NCBI RefSeq assembly: GCF_004010195.1
Contig: NC_057718.1
Location: 48,460,499-48,480,498 of the forward strand
DNA length: 20,000 nucleotides
Direction of reading: 5' to 3'
Origin: Chiloscyllium plagiosum
Taxonomy: Eukaryota
Below are positions 4,252 to 19,706 of the stretch, in pieces (the first letter of the stretch is position 1; each line of letters starts with the position of its first letter). The notes under the pieces were generated by a model that was given only the letters and a program-made list of their open reading frames with translations, did no database searches and was not told the DNA's origin. A program made the position numbers and the translations under genes.

Positions 4252-4425
4252 GGTGAAAGCGAGGACTGCAGATGCTGGAGATCAGAGACAAGATTAGCGT
4301 GGTGCTGGAAAAGCACAGCAAACTTCATCAGGATTCTTGATGAAGGGCTTATGCCCGAAACATCGATTTTCCTGCTCCTCTGATGCTGCCTGACCTGCTG
4401 TGCTTTTCCAGTACCATACTAATCT
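4252..4425. mobile_element. Palindromic Penelope-like-derived insertion (family A) with 16-bp TSD
   Basis: AGATTAGCGTGGTGCTGGAAAAGCACAGCA is the inverted copy of TGCTGTGCTTTTCCAGTACCATACTAATCT; centre CTTCATCAGG-ATTC-TTGATGAAG. TSD CTTCTA(T/A)TGAATTTTG at 4236-4251 and 4426-4441. Confidence 0.85.
4333..4368 (+). ncRNA. Minimal hammerhead ribozyme, C3>U and stem III decayed
   Basis: ATTC|TTGATGA|A|GGGC-TTAT-GCCC|GAAA|CA|TC|GATT. Confidence 0.7.
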
Positions 4426-5031
4426 CTTCTAATGAATTTTGCAGAGTGTGAATATCAATTGCTGCAGGTGGTTTACATAGATTCTTTGTCTGAAGGCTCT
4501 TTCCCTGATGAATATAACTTTTTCTACTGTGCCAATCAGTGGTTCCAGTAGTCCAATTAATTTTGGTAATCTATTCCTCTCTGGAGTCAGTGCTGAATTT
4601 ACTTGCTGATCGTGCTATGGATTAGATAAATAACTGGTGAGCAATGGTTTAATGAAATAAGGTGATATTGTGATAATGTGACTGCATAACTTAGCTTTTA
4701 GTCTTCTGTCTATTTAGATAATGATGTCTATTTTAAAATCTTTATAGAAAAATGGAAACTTTAATTACTTCCATAAAAATTATTTGGATTTTTTAATGTG
4801 CTTGCATTCGTATCTTGAATATAGATCACCTTTTGTAAGTCAGTGTCATTTATTTATATAGCGTTCCTGTGAAGCACCTTACCATGTTTTATTTGTTAAG
4901 AAGTGCTATAGAAATACAATCTGCTGTTGTTACACTGCATTTTTGTTGAGGGGCTGAATGTAAGACCGTATCAATGCATGTTATGAATTGTAATTATATC
5001 TTATTTTTCTTTATAGACAAGCGATAACCAA

Positions 5032-5699: not shown

Positions 5700-6712
5700 T
5701 TCCCTAAATAAAACTGGAGTCATTGAGAATCCAGGACTATCTCTGCTGGATAGTCATGCCAAGCATAAAAGGAAGATTATTATTAGAGGCCAGTCTTCCG
5801 GGTCATGTCGTAGCCCAAATATCTTCATCTGCTTTGTCATAAGGTCAGAATTGAGATTTGTTGATGGTCACACAGTGTTCAGCACCATTCCTGAATCCTC
5901 AGATACTGAAGCAGTCTGTGTCCAAATTCAGCAAGACTTGGACTTCACTCCATCTTGAACTGATAAGGGGCAAGTAACATTTTCACCACACAAGTGCCAG
6001 ATAATGACTATTTCCAAACACAGAATATTGCCTCACTGTTTTCAATGAAATTACTATCACTGAATCCCTCACTATCAACATCCTAGGGTTATCATTTAGC
6101 AGAAACCAAGCTGGACTAACCATACAAAAACTATGGCAATGACTAGATTAATAGGCTAGTTACCAAAGAAGTCTAGCCATCATCTGATTCCTAGGTCAGG
6201 AGTGTGATGGAATACTCTCTACTGCATGGATGAGTGCAGCTCCAATAAAACTAAATTAAGCTCAATATCATCCAAGACAAAGTTGCCTGCTTAATTGACA
6301 CCACATCTGACACCTTTGACATATGCTCCGTTCATCACTGATGCATAGTACTAGCAGTGTGTACCGTCTATAAAATGCACTGCAACAATTCATTAAAACT
6401 CCTTTAGACAGCACTGTTAAAACCTATGACCTCTTATCGAGAAGGACAAGGCAGCTGATATACGTCAATACTGTCATCTGCAAATTCCCCTTCATCCACA
6501 TACTGTCCTGATTTGGACCTATACTGACATTTCTTCACCTTGGTCAAAATCATGAAACGTACCTCCCTAAGAGCACTATGGCTGTGTCTGACCACAGGGA
6601 CCTCAGTGGTTCAAGAAGGCAACTTAACACCACATCCTTGAGAACAGTTAGGGCAGAGGATAAATGCTGGCTGAGCGAGCAACACCCACATCCTGTAAAG
6701 GAATAAGCAAAA
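5700..6712 (+). mobile_element. Decayed CR1/L2-group LINE 3' part (RT to tail)
   Basis: Degenerate GPNIFICF, FVDGHTVF (FADD-like), IQQDLD, VTFSPHKCQ and VRSVMEYS motifs; tail TAAATGCTGG...CCCACATCC. Inverted homolog at 19175-19706. Confidence 0.75.
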
Positions 6713-10570: not shown

Positions 10571-10909
10571 GGGACCTGAGAAGGACTCAACTTCAAGGGC
10601 AGCAGAACTGCTAAAAGGAAATAGATACAAAAATAGATTACTGGCAAGTATAAAATATGATTTTTAAAAAATGCATTTCTGAATTTTGAGAATTTTCAAT
10701 GAAAGCTTTTCATTCCAACAGTTCTCTCTTGAGCTCAGTCGTATTCTCAACCTACCTTGCCAATTCACCTTGACGAGAACCTGTCAAGTGACCTGCAAAT
10801 GGGTTGATGATTTGTGTGCACATACTGATTTAATTGCCATTAAAATGTCACGACAGAGTGACCAAGATTGGGAACTGAATATCCAAGGATAGGCATTTGG
10901 GAGGGCTAG

Positions 10910-11032
10910 GAGAAAGTGAGGACTGCAGATGCTGGAAATCAGAGTCAAGAGTGTGGCACTGGAAAAGCACAGCAGGTCAGGCAGCATCCGAGGAACAGGA
11001 GAGTTGACGTTTCGGGCAAGAGCTCTTCATCA
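10910..11032 (-). mobile_element. Short Penelope-like-derived insertion (family A) with 16-bp TSD
   Basis: Same terminus as 4252 (GAAAG(C/T)GAGGACTGCAGATGCTGGA). TSD CATTT(G/A)GGAGGGCTAG at 10894-10909 and 11033-11048. Confidence 0.88.
11002..11032 (-). ncRNA. Truncated hammerhead ribozyme (lacks C3 and the 5' strand of stem I)
   Basis: Minus strand: TGATGA|A|GAGC-TCTT-GCCC|GAAA|CG|TC|AACT. Confidence 0.7.
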
Positions 11033-11224: not shown

Positions 11225-12110
11225 TTGGGTTGTAGGTTTAGGTTTAATTGTCATGTGTGCTCAAGTAATGGCGTACAAGAATCCAGTGAGAAGTGTACAA
11301 TGTTGCCACACATGGCTCCATCTTAGGTACAAAATCTTGGCTACCAGAAATGGAGAAGTTAAAAAAAAATTTAAAGTTCAGCACTACAGCTTTCTTAGCA
11401 TAAAAGTTGAAAAATAAAGAAATAAAGTTAAAATGTCAAACATTACAGTCCATTCTTGAGCCATTGGCCTAAGCTGGGCTTCCCCAAAGGGTTGGCTGTC
11501 CTGTGCTGGGTATGCTTTCATCTGCGCTGGGCTAAGACCCACCTGGACACACCAGGCTTTGTCACCTCTCACAAGGCTTCAGCCTAGACTAGCATATCAT
11601 CTTTTACCGTGGCTGCCACCATCCATCGCTGCCGCTGCCTCATTGCTGATCACTTTTGCCATCATACTTCGCTGTCACTGCTGATCACTGCTTTGCTGCT
11701 GCCGCCATCTGGGCTTGCACTGGGCTCCAGTTACTGCCATGCTCCATCACTGCGGCTGCCTCTATGGCCCCAGTTTTACGATTGCTCCAGGTCCATGCTG
11801 GGCTCACTGTAGGTCCACACTGAGCTCCCTTGAGGTCTGCGCTGGGTTCCCTCTAGGTCTACGCAGGACTCCCTCGAGTTCACACCGAGCTCCCTCGAGG
11901 TCCAGGCTAGGCTTCGTTTAGGTCCCCACTGAGCTCCCCGAGGTCCAGACTGGGCTCCCTCAAGTCTGCGAGGTCTGCCGTCAATATCATCTGAGCTCAA
12001 GAGGTGAGTAATGAAAATAGAAGATATCAAAGAAAACAAGAAAAGAGAAAAGAAAAGAAAAGCATTTGTAGTGGATGAGCTCTGCCTTGTGAACAATTTC
12101 GAACCCAGCA
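11225..12110 (-). mobile_element. Unclassified, apparently non-coding insertion in the CR1 (possible non-autonomous LINE derivative)
   Basis: Separates CR1 endonuclease from later ORF2 sequence. Minus-strand end CACATGACAATTAAACCTAAACC looks like a short-repeat LINE tail; GC-rich interior with a minisatellite. Confidence 0.45.
11789..11962. repeat. Minisatellite, 8 degenerate units of 21-22 bp, consensus ~AGGTCCACGCTGGGCTCCCTCG
   Basis: Units start at 11789, 11811, 11833, 11855, 11877, 11898, 11920 and 11941. Confidence 0.85.
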
Positions 12111-12458
12111 AAAGAGGATCAACAAACTGACTAACAAAGGAAAAATAGGATAAATATCCAACCTAGTAAGGAACATAACAATGGACTACAAAAGCTTCTT
12201 TAGGTAAGTGAAATGAAAAATATTATCTCAAACAAATTTGGACCCATTACAAGAAGGGCAGCAAACCAGATAGTTACAGGCCAGTTAGGCTGATGTCAGT
12301 GGTTGGGAAAGTATTGGGAAAAGTGCGATAGGAAAGAACTAAACAACATTTAGAAACAATAGTAGTCATTATTTGGAGATGCCAGTGTTGGACTTGGGTG
12401 TACAAAGTTAGAAATCACAAAACACCAGGTTATAGTCCAACAGGTTTAATTGGAAGCA

Positions 12459-12493
12459 CACTAGCTTTCGGAGCGACGCTCCTTCATCAGGTG
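12459..12493 (-). ncRNA. Minimal type I hammerhead ribozyme, intact core
   Basis: Minus strand: CAC|CTGATGA|A|GGAGC-GTC-GCTCC|GAAA|GC|TA|GTG. Confidence 0.88.
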
Positions 12494-12538
12494 ATAGTGG
12501 AGGGCTCGATTCTGTGTTACGATCGAGCCTTCCACTAT

Positions 12539-12573
12539 CACCTGATGAAGGAGCGTCGCTCCGAAAGCTAGTG
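12539..12573 (+). ncRNA. Minimal type I hammerhead ribozyme, intact core; predicted cleavage after A12570 (CUA)
   Basis: CAC|CTGATGA|A|GGAGC-GTC-GCTCC|GAAA|GC|TA|GTG: stem I CAC/GTG, 5-bp stem II, AGCT palindrome at stem III. Confidence 0.9.
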
Positions 12574-13835
12574 TGCTTCCAATTAAACCTGTTGGACTAC
12601 AACCTGTTGTTGTGTGATTTTTAACATTTGGAAAGGCAGTGATTGGTCAGTGATAGTCAGCACTGATTAGAGTGGATCCTATCTGACAAAAATTTAGTTG
12701 AGCTTTTTGAAAAGGTGATGAAATATATCAATGAAGGTAGCGCAGTTAATGTGGTTTACATCGACTTCAGTCAGGCCTTTGATGAGGTCCCACATGGAAA
12801 GCTGGTCCAAAAAGCAAGAGCCCATGGGATTCAAGGCAGGTTGGATCCAAAATTAGCTTGCAAATAGAAAGCAGAGTGATGATGGAGTGTTGTTTTGTAA
12901 TTGGAAGCTGTGACCAGCAGTGTACTACAGGGATTGGTGCATGGACTTTTGCCTTTTATGTACATTAATGACTTGGACGTGAATGTAAAAAGTTTAGTTA
13001 GTAAGTTTGTAGATGACCCATAAATTGGTGGTGTTGTTGATTATGAGGAGGATGATCCAAGGCTACACTTTAATATTGATCAGCTGGGAAATTGAACAAA
13101 GCAATTACAGATAGAAGTTAATCCTGATAAGTTTGATCTGATACATTTTAGGAGATCTAACAAGAGAAAGATATTTACAATGAATGGTAGGTCCTTGGGG
13201 AGTATTGAGGAACAAAGGGGCCTTGATGTACAAATCCATATATCCTTGAAGGTGTCAGCTTAGGTAGAACGGGTGATGAAGAAGGCATAGGAGATGCTTG
13301 CCTTTATTAGCCAGGATGTAGACTATCGGAACAAGTCACAACTTTATGAAGCATTGCTTAGGCAACAGCTGGAATACTGTATGCAGTTCTGGGGGGGTCA
13401 CCACATTATTGGAAGGACATGATTGGAGAGAGTGCAGAGAAGATTCACCAGGATGTTGCCTGGGATGAAAAACTCAGTTATGAGGAGAGACTGGATAGGT
13501 TGGGTTTGTTATCCTTGGAGGAGAAATCGAGCAGGGATCTGATTGAGATATGCAAAATTATGAGAAACATTGACAGGGTACATCATGAGTCTCCCCATGG
13601 CAGACTTGCCGAAGTGCATGAGTTTAAAGTGAGATGTAAGTGGTTTAAAGGAGATATGAAATAATTTTTTTCACCCAGAGAGTATAGAAGTATGATACAT
13701 GCTGCCTGAGAGGGTGGTGGAGGCAAGTACTCTCACAACATTTAAGAAGCATCTGGATGGGCACTAAATGCCAGGGCATAATAGGGTATCGACCAAGTGC
13801 AAATTAATGGGATTACTGTGGTTTAATGTTTGTTA

Positions 13836-14333
13836 TGTTATGACATAGGGTAAACCCACCCCTGGTAATTTAAACCAGCAATACAGAAAAAAATTACCCT
13901 GTGTGGTAATCTGTGAAAATTCAAGAGGTCAAGAACTATCCCAAAAAGCCACTATTTAAAGTACAAAAATTTAAGAATTTTATTCTTTACGTCTATCATA
14001 GAATATTAATCAACAACTATTTACAAATCCTTTCTCTAGCATACCTTTTACTTTCCAATCTGCAATACTGGTCCGATAAAATCCTGATTAAGATTTACTG
14101 AAAAATTCTAATTTCAAAATCAGCCAGTTATCAAATCTTCCCTTTGTAGATTTGCTCTCCCGGTCAGTGTCAATGTTTTTTTCTGCGCAAACATCTTCTC
14201 TAAACGGGTACCTCTCAGAGAGTTCTCACTAGCAGCCTACCTCTGTTGGTCTTTTGGCAGTTCTCCCCCAACTGTTCATTTTTTTTTGGGTTTTATACCC
14301 CAAAGCATCGGAACATTTCATTGGTTTTTAATA
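13836..14333 (-). repeat. 3' LTR, truncated on its internal side
   Basis: Direct repeat of 15913-~16398 (e.g. GGTAATTTAAACCAGCAA, GATTAAGATTTACTGAAAAATTCTAATTTCAAAATCAGCCAG); similarity ends at CATTGGTTTTTAATA. Confidence 0.9.
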
Positions 14334-14334
14334 A

Positions 14335-15731
14335 ACATTACCCACAGAGATGAATTCTTTGCAGAGATCAGGTACTAACTCCATACCCAGCCCGTTCCCA
14401 CTCTCCTGCACTCTCCTGCAGCTCCTCAGCTCTTCTTGGGGTCTCCTTTGCTACCTTCACTCATGCAACTGGCTTAGCTTCTTTTACCACATCTGTTCCC
14501 ACAGTGCCTTTATTTAATGACCAGCACTGTGGTCATTCTGGCAGCGAAAACACCTTTTCTCAGAGCCCATCTGAGACCACTGGCACTGTAATGTTCTGTG
14601 ACCCAGTCCATTACAGTGAAAACACCTGAGGCCGTTCACCTCTTTTTCACCCTCATGGGCTTCTTTAACTTGTGATAAATTCCTATCAGTGTTCTCTACT
14701 CCTTGTTTCGTAGTACAGGATCTCCCCTTCTCCCAACTTCTATCCCTCACAGAATGAAGTTTTGGCTGGAAGCTTATCTTGTGCCCCAACATGTACTCAT
14801 CTGCTAATTCTGCTGCCCTTCTCATTTCCTGAACTTTCTGTTCCTCCACATGAATTCTTACCATCTCTGGAAGTGAGTTTTTAAACTCTTCCAGCAGGAT
14901 GATCACTGTTAGAGCCTCAAAGGTCCTACCTATTTTTAAAGCACGCATCCAGCTATCAAAATGACTGTTTAATTCTTTCGAACTCAGCATAAGTCTGTTC
15001 TGGTTTTTTCTTTGTGTTTCTGAACTGCTGTTTATATGCTTCTGGTACCAATTCATAAGCCCTTAAAATAGCCTGTTTGATCTCTTCATAATCTCTTGAC
15101 CCCTCATCTGACAGGGTGGAAAATACCTCATTAGCTCTGTCTACCAGTTTAGTCTGAACTAGCGTTACCCATAAATCCTCGAATCACTCCATCTGCCTAG
15201 CCAATATTTCAAATGAAATAAAGAAGGCTTCAACACCTTTCTCATCAAAATGTGTATATCACTACCTTCTCTTTTAACTTCCATCCTGTTGACTTGACTT
15301 TGCTATGTCACAAATTCTCAAGTTCAAATTCTCTCTCTTTGTCTCTCCCTTTCTTCTCTGTCTCTTTGCTCAGCTAAGTACCTTCTTTCTCTCTCTTTCC
15401 TCTATCTCTCTTTTTCCTGTCTCTCTCTTCTCTCTCTCTTCCTCTTTCTCTCTCCCTCTCTCCTTCCTCTCTCTGTTTATCTTCTAACTCCATTTTCCTC
15501 AACTGTAATTTAAGTTTTTACATCTCTACTACAAGTGTGTTTCTCTGACACACCTAAGCGTTTGAGTAACTCTTTTACAATTTCAGCTTTATGTCTGCCC
15601 CTGGTTAAACCTAACTCTAATTTCTTTGCAAATTCTAAAAGTATGGCCTTTTTCTTTCCTTCTAAGCTTTCTTGGAAAATTTGAGAATCATCTTCAAATC
15701 CCAGAACCTCTTTAGCAGTTTTAAGAGCCAT
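14335..15731 (-). pseudogene. Gypsy gag remnant: coiled coil, capsid/SCAN-like domain, CCHC zinc knuckle
   Basis: MALKTAKEVLG.. (ATG 15731); E/R/K-rich tract; FDEKGVEAFFISFE..DYEEIKQAILRAYELVPEAYKQQFR; IILLEEFKNSLPEMVRIHVEEQK..AAELADEY; CFHCNGLGHRTLQC; ends at PDLCKEFISVGNV. Stops and frameshifts present. Confidence 0.9.
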
Positions 15732-15891
15732 TTCTCTCACTTTTAATTTAATTAACCACAAGTCACTGAAATTAAACACATTGTCTCACTTACGTTTTAT
15801 TTACAGATCTAGGACACTAACCTGCAAGTGTTTAAAGCTGCTGTGATTCCTCATACCCCAAATCTATTCAAATCTGTCTAAACCAGTTCAA

Positions 15892-15909
15892 ATCCTGGAC
15901 GATCCCCAA
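15892..15909 (-). promoter_or_regulatory. Primer binding site, tRNA-Pro type
   Basis: Minus strand TTGGGGATCGTCCAGGAT vs canonical TGGGGGCTCGTCCGGGAT (15/18), 3 nt from the LTR end. Confidence 0.85.
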
Positions 15910-15912
15910 ATC

Positions 15913-16627
15913 TATTATGATACAGGTAACCCCCCCGACCTCGGTAATTTAAACCAGCAACAAAGAAAAAATTTCACAGTAATCTGTAGACGCCAAGAAC
16001 TATCCCAAAAGTATAAAAGTTAAAGTACAAAAAATTTAAGAACTTTCTGCTTTACGTCTAACATAGAATATTAACCAACAACTATTACCAATTACTTTCT
16101 CTAACTTATCTTTTACTTTCCCTTCTGCAATATTGGTCCGATAAAATCCCTGATTAAGATTTACTGAAAAATTCTAATTTCAAAATCAGCCAGCTATCGA
16201 ATCTTCGCTTTGTAGATTTGTTCTCCCAGTCAGTGTCAATGTTTTTTTCCGTGCAACCACCTTCTCTAGATGGGTACCTCTCAGAGAGTTCTCACTAACG
16301 GCCTACCTCTGTTGGTCTTTTGGCAGTTCTCCCCCAACTGTTCAATTCTTTTTGGTTTTATACCCTAAAGCATTGGATCATTACATTGGTTTTTAATATT
16401 GTCAAAATACTAAATTCAAACTGAATTGGAGTTGGGTATCTTGGGGTATAATTTAAACTGATTGGCCAAATTCGAATTTGCTTTTGTATCCAGCCAACCC
16501 AGCTAATCTAGCTGTTCGACCAAATGTTACATTGTTACTTTGTTCAGAACACTTGGTGCCGTAACAGGTAGTTCTGCTAGCTTTTCAACTCTTTTAAAGG
16601 CTCAATAGCCCTTACACCTTCATAACA
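15913..16627 (-). repeat. 5' LTR, complete (~715 bp)
   Basis: T(A)TTATGA...TCATAACA termini, adjacent to the PBS. Confidence 0.9.
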
Positions 16628-16778: not shown

Positions 16779-16884
16779 GAGCTTCATTCCAGAGTATTCA
16801 ACCTTTCAAAATTCTATAGATTCTGGATAGATTTCAGCTGACTGAAAAGTAGTAAATATAACTTCACTCTTTAAGTAGAGAGAG

Positions 16885-17071
16885 AAAGTCAGAAGTCACA
16901 CCACACCAGGTTATTTGAAATCACAAGCTCCTTCGTCAAGATTCCCTCCACTTTACCTGAGGAAGGAGCAGTGCTCTGAAAGCTTGTGATTTCAAATAAA
17001 TCTGTTGGACTATCACCTGGTGTCATGAGAATTCTGATTTTGTCCACCCCAGTCCAACCCAGAACCTCCAA
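16885..17071. mobile_element. Palindromic Penelope-like-derived insertion (family B, diverged), left arm internally deleted
   Basis: Homologous to 12376-12625 in opposite orientation (CTGTTGGACTA..CCTGGTGT..TTTGTCCACCCCAGTCCAAC..CTCCA). Left arm TTATTTGAAATCACAAGCT is the inverse of AGCTTGTGATTTCAAATAA. Confidence 0.85.
16954..16988 (+). ncRNA. Minimal hammerhead ribozyme, core intact, wobble pairs in stems I and II
   Basis: TAC|CTGAGGA|A|GGAGC-AGT-GCTCT|GAAA|GC|TT|GTG; predicted cleavage triplet CUU. Confidence 0.8.
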
Positions 17072-19174: not shown

Positions 19175-19706
19175 ATGTATTTTTTCACAGGTTTTGGCTG
19201 TCACTGGCTAATCCAACATTTATTGACCCTCTCTATTGTACTCCAGAAGGTGGTGGTGTGCCATCTTCTTGAACCATTATAGTCCATCTGTTGTGATGAT
19301 TTCCAAAATTTGGATCCAACTACAGTAAAGGAACGTCAATATTTTTTCAAGTCAGGATGATGTATGCTTGAAGGAGACTCTTTAGCTGGTGATGCTCTAG
19401 TGCATAGGCTGTCCCATCCCTGTCATTCCAGTTGATAGAAGTTGACTTGGTAAGCTGCTGTTTAATGAGTGAATTATGCCAGTGCATCTTGGAGTTGCTC
19501 CACACTGCTGCTGCTGAAGGGATGCAGTGGCATTGAGCTTCTTGTGTGTTTTTTGCAGCTCCAGTCATCCAGTCAAGAGGAGAGTACTCCATCACCTTCT
19601 TGATATATGCCATGTAGATGGAAGACAGTCACTGGGGTGTAAGGCGGTGAATTACATGATGCAGAATCCCCAGCCTCTAAACTGTTCTGGTAGTCACAAT
19701 ATTTAT
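19175..19706 (-). mobile_element. Decayed CR1/L2-group LINE 3' part, same family as 5700-6712
   Basis: Minus strand KVMEYSPLDWMTGA, KMHWHNS and tail GGTTCAAGAAGATGGCACACCACCACCTTC..AATAAATGTTGG. Confidence 0.75.

Follow-up and report, generated by a model that had tools for sequence, protein, structure and literature searches.

Positions 12357-12625 of the analysed window, a stretch of 20,000 nucleotides from Chiloscyllium plagiosum, contain two partial copies of a pLTR/5′ leader that lie head to head within a 12-nt duplication, one of which ends past the tail of the parent element and the other before it. This unit is almost certainly a short insertion of a Penelope/Poseidon-type retrotransposon, whereby the clade name would rest on the domain order, the hammerhead, and the tail. 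The window copy is now neutrally decaying, and its locus is an ordinary one among thousands; the arrangement belongs to a published insertion class. Taken as a whole, a neutrally decaying Penelope-type insertion that arose from two primed and joined cDNAs is, with good confidence, the best explanation.

Structure and Limits of the Insertion

The first-pass annotation had described a palindrome of 219 bp. Its two inverted arms were verified at 12407-12510 and 12522-12625, where 99 of 104 positions are paired (mismatches at 12411, 12420, 12425, 12432, and 12502), and both ribozymes are real as well. The unit is not symmetric, because the left arm runs on for 50 nt past its partner, and in full it is a lopsided insertion of 269 bp (12357-12625). 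When the best-match copies were aligned (30 loci, 27 after removal of three duplicates), one arm continued for about 37 nt past the end of the other, and the respective arm in the window extends to 12357 (+133). Here and below, element positions are counted in ribozyme sense from the core C3, which is set to 0. In the annotation the tail had been overlooked, as had the target duplication and the parent element.

The longer arm is on the minus strand. The tailed arm proper (12407-12510) is the pLTR segment from −20 to +83, and it is continued by the Penelope “tail” (12370-12406), which is present in this single arm only. At its end the arm contains the beginning of the parent ORF (13 nt, 12357-12369, +121 to +133, ATG at 12369-12367), which matches the ORF start of the full copies L134, L135, L138, and L149. 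The run-on into the ORF comprises 11 exact nt and is the longest of 91 tailed arms, a number that excludes the set retrieved by the RT search. The untailed arm on the plus strand (12522-12625) is the pLTR segment to +83, and its last 3 nt are common to the right target duplication. At the head-to-head junction (12509-12521) the arms share 2-3 nt (12509-12511), and comparison with L063 and L135 revealed that 12509-12521 is parent sequence from −33 to −21, just below a TATA-like box. The putative transcription start of the parent, position −8, corresponds to 12534 on the plus strand and lies 30 nt below the TATAAAT; the window copy extends past this position, at which most short copies start. 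An ATTAAA poly(A) signal is present on the plus strand (12582-12587), together with its mirror on the minus strand (12445-12450). The function of this signal at the family level was derived from RNA reads, and polyadenylation of the family occurs around +57 to +60, the equivalent of 12599-12602.

The insertion is bordered by a target-site duplication of 12 nt, the left (12345-12356) and right (12623-12634) copies of which differ by one mismatch. It was delimited by comparison of the flanks and by uninterrupted paralogs. The recipient is a decayed LINE fragment on the plus strand with the approximate limits 12150-13700, which we take to be CR1-like. Its flanks are 63-76% alike to two LINE paralogs without insert (L072 and L076); in each paralog the segments that correspond to the left and the right flank overlap by about 12-14 nt.

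The Hammerhead Ribozymes

Both strands carry the motif CAC-CTGATGA-A-GGAGC-GTC-GCTCC-GAAA-GCTA-GTG, with the core C3 at 12542 (+) and 12490 (−). The two minimal type I hammerheads (12539-12573 on the plus strand, 12459-12493 on the minus strand) consist of a stem I of 3 bp, the core, a bulged A, a stem II of 5 bp, and the self-complementary AGCT, and the core CUGANGA/GAAA/UH, the bulged base, G10.1-C11.1, and the palindromic 15.2-16.2 were all found. It was thereby verified that a hammerhead is encoded on each strand and that neither contains a mismatch, as had been annotated. Also the palindromic stem III (AGCT) and the assignment to the minimal type I hammerheads of Penelope-like elements proved to be correct, and in full copies the ribozyme is linked to an RT ORF. 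The cut that had been placed after 12570 agrees with the position predicted from the motif, and cleavage on the minus strand would occur after 12462. Cleavage of such ribozymes as dimers is reportedly treated in a 2017 paper in RNA Biology.

The motif is not a product of chance, because 239 matches were found in 760 kb of collected loci and none in the shuffled loci, and the 32-mer ribozyme core had 6,791 exact matches in the genome, in comparison to none for the reversed control. Rfam did not recover it: no Hammerhead family was retrieved with the window at E ≤ 1 or with a single arm at E ≤ 10, which was to be expected because the motif lacks stem III and loop 3. The Rfam entries MIR845_1 (47 bits, threshold 81) and MIR537 stayed below threshold, and their scores reflect hairpin shape generally.

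Stem covariation was verified in the form of compensatory pairs between two ribozyme families only, which represent few independent events and were counted by motif, not from the MAFFT alignment of the two families. Pair 2 of stem I is A-T in 90 of 111 ribozymes of one family and T-A in 26 of 34 of the other, 15.2/16.2 is GC in 101 of 111 versus CG in 24 of 34, and the families also differ in the length and the pairing of stem II. By these comparisons the ribozyme is conserved between families. It is not maintained in inserted copies, and no selection on the genomic cores was seen: in partner arms, which had not been used for ascertainment, the non-CpG changes amounted to 9/509 in the core versus 58/2,792 downstream. 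Among 44 partner arms that belong to other copies, 31 retained all 11 core bases. The absence of mismatches from 12539-12573 and its mirror 12459-12493 is unremarkable; the chance that 35 of 104 positions escape five mismatches is about 0.13 by our own arithmetic.

The Parent Element

Twenty long copies were taken from 48 matches. In L063 the same two ends as in the window enclose two frames, one with RVT_1 (E 1.9e-08) and one in which GIY-YIG-like motifs were recognized by eye. RVT_1 was above the cut-off in L063, L134, and L135, below it in L133, and was not found in two of the five frames of one search. The Pfam search of the element frames yielded no match to GIY-YIG itself; GIY-YIG/CCHH-like motifs in these frames were seen by eye, and the nearest ESM clusters were characterized by HTH_animal with GIY-YIG (12-32% of members) or RVT_1 (41%). 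A PDB search returned no useful relative.

The order pLTR-tail-ATG-ORF was contiguous in four of the 20 long copies (L134, L135, L138, and L149). In the parent the ATG of the ORF is at +121, exactly where tailed arms end, and a TATAAAT is located upstream at −38. The pLTRs are direct (pLTR-ORF-pLTR) in L134, L135, and L138 and inverted in most other copies. An RT followed by a GIY-YIG-like frame, a 5′-truncated pLTR, a tail at one end, and a target-site duplication were found, which are the features of Penelope/Poseidon-type elements. A direct tandem of two RT regions was not present among the 20 long copies. In copies longer than a unit the 5′ pLTR reached to −273 (L135), −349 (L134), or −106 (L149), or stopped at +37 (L138). 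In one arm of L063 (3070-3700) a microsatellite-like segment of the 3′ region has expanded to a long array, and this was the case in that arm only.

Copy Number and Anatomy in the Genome

The genome of 3.56 Gb was searched for exact matches, the counts of which are lower bounds. Head-to-head pairs of cores were found 2,645 times at a distance of 0-30 nt and 482 times at 31-61 nt, the class to which the window belongs with its cores 51 nt apart. The tail 25-mer had 12,147 exact matches, 125 of which (about 1 in 100) continued into the ORF with up to one mismatch. A tail-to-tail pattern, which does not serve as a matched control, yielded 12 matches at a spacing of 100-130 nt.

For an analysis of the anatomy the first 100 listed cores on one contig were used, which represent 88 insertions in the first 55-90 Mb of one chromosome, selected for intact cores. 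They comprised 54 head-to-head pairs with arms at most 60 nt apart, 10 pairs with long centres, and 24 insertions without partner. The long-centre pairs, which were accepted by eye, all combined a tailed and an untailed arm. The same was true for 49 of the 54 close pairs, while no pair was tailed on both sides, three were scored as untailed on both sides, and two were unscored; on inspection, two of the three pairs scored as untailed turned out to be tailed with indels. In the 49 pairs with one tail, tailed arms ended at +114 to +126 and untailed arms mostly at +80 to +89. A second set, chosen by 12-nt words, contained 34 new pairs, of which 29 were tailed and untailed, one was tailed on both sides, and four were unscored. 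In a second, unrelated hammerhead family at the same loci the arms were tailed and untailed in 28 of 33 pairs, both tailed in two, both untailed in one, and unscored in two. Exact target duplications of at least 10 nt were detected in 39 of the 54 pairs, with a mode of 12. The 24 of 88 insertions without partner were untailed (19), tailed (4), or unscored (1). Some of them lie beside assembly gaps, which account only for a fraction, and the majority is untailed (19 of 24). Long and short arms could not be told apart by their tailed ends.

In the set of 108 arms, the 5′ ends were concentrated close to one position: 23 were at −9/−8, 46 at −7 to +2, 18 further inside, six at −10 to −16, one at −24, and 14 at −69 or beyond. 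This wall follows the TATA-like box at a distance of 30 nt, and, as far as DNA ends can tell, its position suggests that the RNA has its 5′ end at −8. Templates cut by the ribozyme were rejected, as none of the 108 arms starts at the cut site (+29). The centres vary from copy to copy, all of them being different in the 27 best-match copies, and often contain short fillers derived from nearby element sequence.

A low divergence of the arms had been taken as indication of a recent insertion or of arm homogenisation. This turned out not to be the case. The arms of the window differ by 4.8%, compared with 4.2% between arms in the family (320 of 7,553 columns, 64 pairs) and 5.1% between copies. Since this value is typical of the family, it indicates neither unusual youth nor homogenisation, and the latter was rejected on the basis of this comparison.

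RNA Folding and RNA Reads

Computed folding of the full palindrome gave a pair probability of 0.000 for stems I and II of the ribozyme, and forcing them would cost 67 kcal/mol. The ribozyme stems were likewise penalised in a nascent RNA ending just past the cut site. Folding of one arm by itself gave a predicted pair probability of 0.91 for stem II and 0.03 for stem I. When the two arms were folded together with RNAcofold, the form of lowest energy paired the strands of stem II and was not the active dimer, a known limit of such models. The earlier proposal that ribozyme folding competes with a long dsRNA hairpin was therefore correct in that the hairpin opposes the ribozyme, but a competition does not take place, because the hairpin wins outright. 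Since the antisense arm is transcribed first from either side, read-through RNA should contain an inactive ribozyme. The hammerheads would be passengers, which the antisense arm, made first in read-through RNA, would zip up, and the hairpin is presumably a by-product that silences the ribozyme.

RNA reads of the family were found in run X21, one raw single-cell poly(A) run, perhaps from another species, with a library design not suited to 5′ ends. From about 2 in 100 of this run, 2,951 reads aligned to L135:2450-3400 at 88% likeness; no reads aligned from run X22. A-runs were joined behind +57 (358 reads) and +60 (446 reads), i.e., L135:2792 and 2795, 12-15 nt past the ATTAAA. The depth was above 1,000 across the ribozyme cut site without any pile-up of read ends, in a library that was not built to show one. 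In these reads poly(A) follows about 30 nt downstream of the ribozyme site, which is uncut. As many as 84% of the X21 reads continued into unlike sequence, and they therefore stem mostly from dispersed copies inside host RNA. Among the X21 differences listed, for which matched DNA is lacking, there were 4 A>G versus 13 T>C, and thus no excess of A>G, a comparison that says little about A-to-I editing.

The ORF start was joined back to exactly −8 in two X21 reads and in one contig entry each of X1 and X5, which are possibly DNA; these joints are weak but pointed hints. At L155:1520-1569 the centre of a palindrome is filled by a 50-nt piece of the ORF start (+153 to +202), which adjoins about −8 and was taken as a template jump that left the RNA at its 5′ end and continued on the same RNA. 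A leader intron, considered on the basis of a branch-point-like motif and a CAG in the tail, was unsupported, as no such joint was present among the joints listed.

Proposed Mechanism of Insertion

The following mechanism is proposed. [quoted passage not shown] Of the two cDNAs, one would begin at a distal start (at about +121, or +133 in the window) and the other at a proximal start (about +85). Both would be extended toward the 5′ end of the RNA and then be united head to head by end joining. Most copies would stop at −8/−9, the putative transcription start, and the window copy would be part of a minority that passes it (−21 and −33). Because two cDNAs would be joined at each insertion, the palindrome would be formed anew every time, which we consider very likely.

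That both cDNAs were primed on the target is the reading we favour, and it is rather probable. The alternative, self-priming, has been proposed by Arkhipova 2013 (PMC3846280) and Craig 2021 (PMC8557442), according to the available text of both papers: one cDNA or antisense template would fold back and copy itself, and resolution by the endonuclease would leave one tail. The single tail per insertion would then need no further assumptions. The concordance of a 2-nt indel that serves as subfamily marker in 45 of 51 pairs argues against dual priming and is predicted by the snap-back; so is the correlation of arm lengths (42 pairs with both arms short, six with both long, and one mixed, n = 49), and long arms are often near-equal, e.g., −245/−247 or −166/−157. 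Minor variants shared by the arms, at a level 7-fold above that between copies, also speak against dual priming. However, in 20 of 49 pairs the untailed arm exceeded the tailed one on the 5′ side by more than 3 nt (the reverse in 13, within 3 nt in 16), and in two pairs the arms did not overlap at all. The untailed arm is therefore no mere duplicate of the tailed cDNA, although central deletions after insertion could have shortened either arm. In addition, 7 of 18 informative pairs had arms with different −4 markers, and 6 of 51 were discordant for the indel. Untailed arms end sharply, mostly at +80 to +89, in the manner of a priming site. Self-priming is therefore an unlikely origin of the palindromes. 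Concerning the two markers, the discordance of the −4 T/C marker is close to the expectation for independence, unlike that of the 2-nt indel, for which the arms agree in most pairs.

Alternatively, the palindrome could be a non-autonomous mobile unit, MITE-like or retrozyme-like, that is copied whole from few masters. The high copy number, the constant outer ends, and the duplications would be in accordance with this, and a few centres recur, including an identical 15-nt centre in 4 of 50 pairs among those listed. But the recurring centres are the simplest joins at −7/−8, and the centres differ in the 27 best matches and in nearly all sampled pairs. Instead of the fixed interior and symmetric ends of a MITE, variable centres and a one-sided tail were observed, and the copies form a continuum from 130-nt stubs to multi-kb RT copies. 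Tandem arrays, which define retrozymes in the available text of 10.64898/2026.07.22.740005, are missing; instead of head-to-tail tandem units only few local direct repeats (L113, L131) were found. This explanation is very improbable. A ribozyme/antisense switch or small-RNA hairpin that is retained by the host through selection or homogenisation is hardly credible, because, in spite of two intact ribozymes, a perfect stem stretch of 69 bp, abundant family RNA in one run, and the MIR845_1 score, the divergence of the arms is at the family mean, mutation in the core of partner arms is no slower than downstream, the score is far under its threshold and reflects any hairpin, and the site is inside a decayed LINE.

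Within the favoured mechanism of dual priming it is tempting to speculate, and no more than tentatively, that these copies preserve, like fossils, a Penelope insertion cycle in which the pLTR acts as a true LTR and two “strong-stop” cDNAs are joined. Polyadenylation at +57/+60 is upstream of both RT starts (+85 and +121), and thus the polyadenylated 3′ end would be unable to prime. The RNA would start at −8, and priming would take place where pLTR and ORF meet, close to the mRNA 5′ end. With one start per target strand, a protein dimer would then produce two strong-stop cDNAs, which would mostly be joined head to head. Longer copies would require a jump to the repeated sequence −8 to +60 at the RNA's 3′ end; a circle whose ends are joined at the hammerhead site, or else read-through RNA from upstream, would be alternatives. 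The window copy would carry both marks of such a cycle, as it starts inside the ORF start and passes the transcription start. A literature search of open main texts, the supplements of which may list such families, retrieved no paper on the window family or on the strong-stop interpretation.

Comparison With Known Systems

Inverted head-to-head pLTRs with a tail at one end have been published (available text of PMC3846280, PMC8557442, PMC8969392, and PMC2377424). As in the insertions of endonuclease-bearing Penelope-like elements described in the first three, an inverted 5′-truncated copy, a tail of 30-40 nt, a target duplication, and TATA/initiator-like motifs in the pLTR are present. In contrast to them, the typical insertion here consists of two leader stubs only and exists in thousands of copies, the duplication is about 12 nt rather than the 8-10 nt of rotifer elements, and the ORF begins right after the tail and not inside the pLTR. 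For Drosophila Penelope a TATA-less internal promoter is described (PMC2377424).

The ribozyme agrees with the min-HHR of Cervera and de la Pena 2014 (PMC4209133) in the core, the unpaired base before stem II, G10.1-C11.1, the palindromic 15.2/16.2, and the absence of loop 3. In Schistosoma, dual min-HHRs are found on opposite strands 100-700 bp apart, with stems I and II of 4-5 and 7-8 bp, in comparison to 3 and 5 bp and cores 51 nt apart in the window. The available text of that paper does not name cartilaginous fish for the min-HHR.

The Poseidon protein PAc of Anolis carolinensis cleaves and extends both strands and is predicted to be a dimer (available text of Frangieh 2024, PMC11167929). 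Two internal RT starts bound the tail, RNA downstream of them is needed, and hammerhead cleavage is dispensable; as observed here, no reads ended at the cut site. The PAc start at +111-118 of the ORF would translate to about +114-121 from C3, near the tailed ends reported here. The ORF of PAc starts at an ATG inside the ribozyme, whereas the same ATG opens only eight codons here. In vitro the RT start was the same on both strands, and thus the one-tail rule is unexplained by that paper, the available text of which does not discuss palindromic products.

Non-LTR retrozymes (available text of 10.64898/2026.07.22.740005) are also short, non-coding, and derived from PLE pLTRs, and have a type I hammerhead. 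However, they are head-to-tail tandems that are cut out by two ribozymes, whereas the copies described here are head to head with antisense arms.

Possible Consequences for the Host

The likeliest effect on the host is that of a poly(A) signal in both orientations together with a dsRNA hairpin of 100 bp. Thousands of such hairpins may supply host transcripts with poly(A) signals in both orientations and with dsRNA, and they are liable to be miscalled as miRNA precursors or MITEs. The family is a large natural data set on inverted pLTRs, tails, longer-than-unit copies, and the purpose of the hammerhead. The one-tail rule, the 5′-end wall, and the poly(A) position lead to predictions that are testable in the existing anole in vitro system.

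Neighbouring Features in the Window

An older copy of a related family is located at 16882-17070, with an untailed short arm on the left, a tailed arm on the right, a decayed ribozyme, and an AATAAA. The second hammerhead family (4-bp stem II, stem III word ACGT) is represented by a tailed and untailed palindrome at 4252-4430 and by a single tailed arm at 10909-11032. At 13855-16398 direct repeats of about 480 nt, 2,065 nt apart, surround a minus-strand SCAN frame (E 2.3e-08) that also has a zinc-knuckle-like motif; the region looks like the remnant of a gag-only LTR retroelement. LINE RT fragments are present on the minus strand at 82-773 (RVT_1 E 1.4e-06, just under the cut-off), and 11785-11961 is a GC-rich tandem repeat with eight copies of 22-nt units and 66% matches. 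Two inverted partial matches of about 75%, at 6227-6392 and 19470-19571, are probably due to another dispersed repeat.
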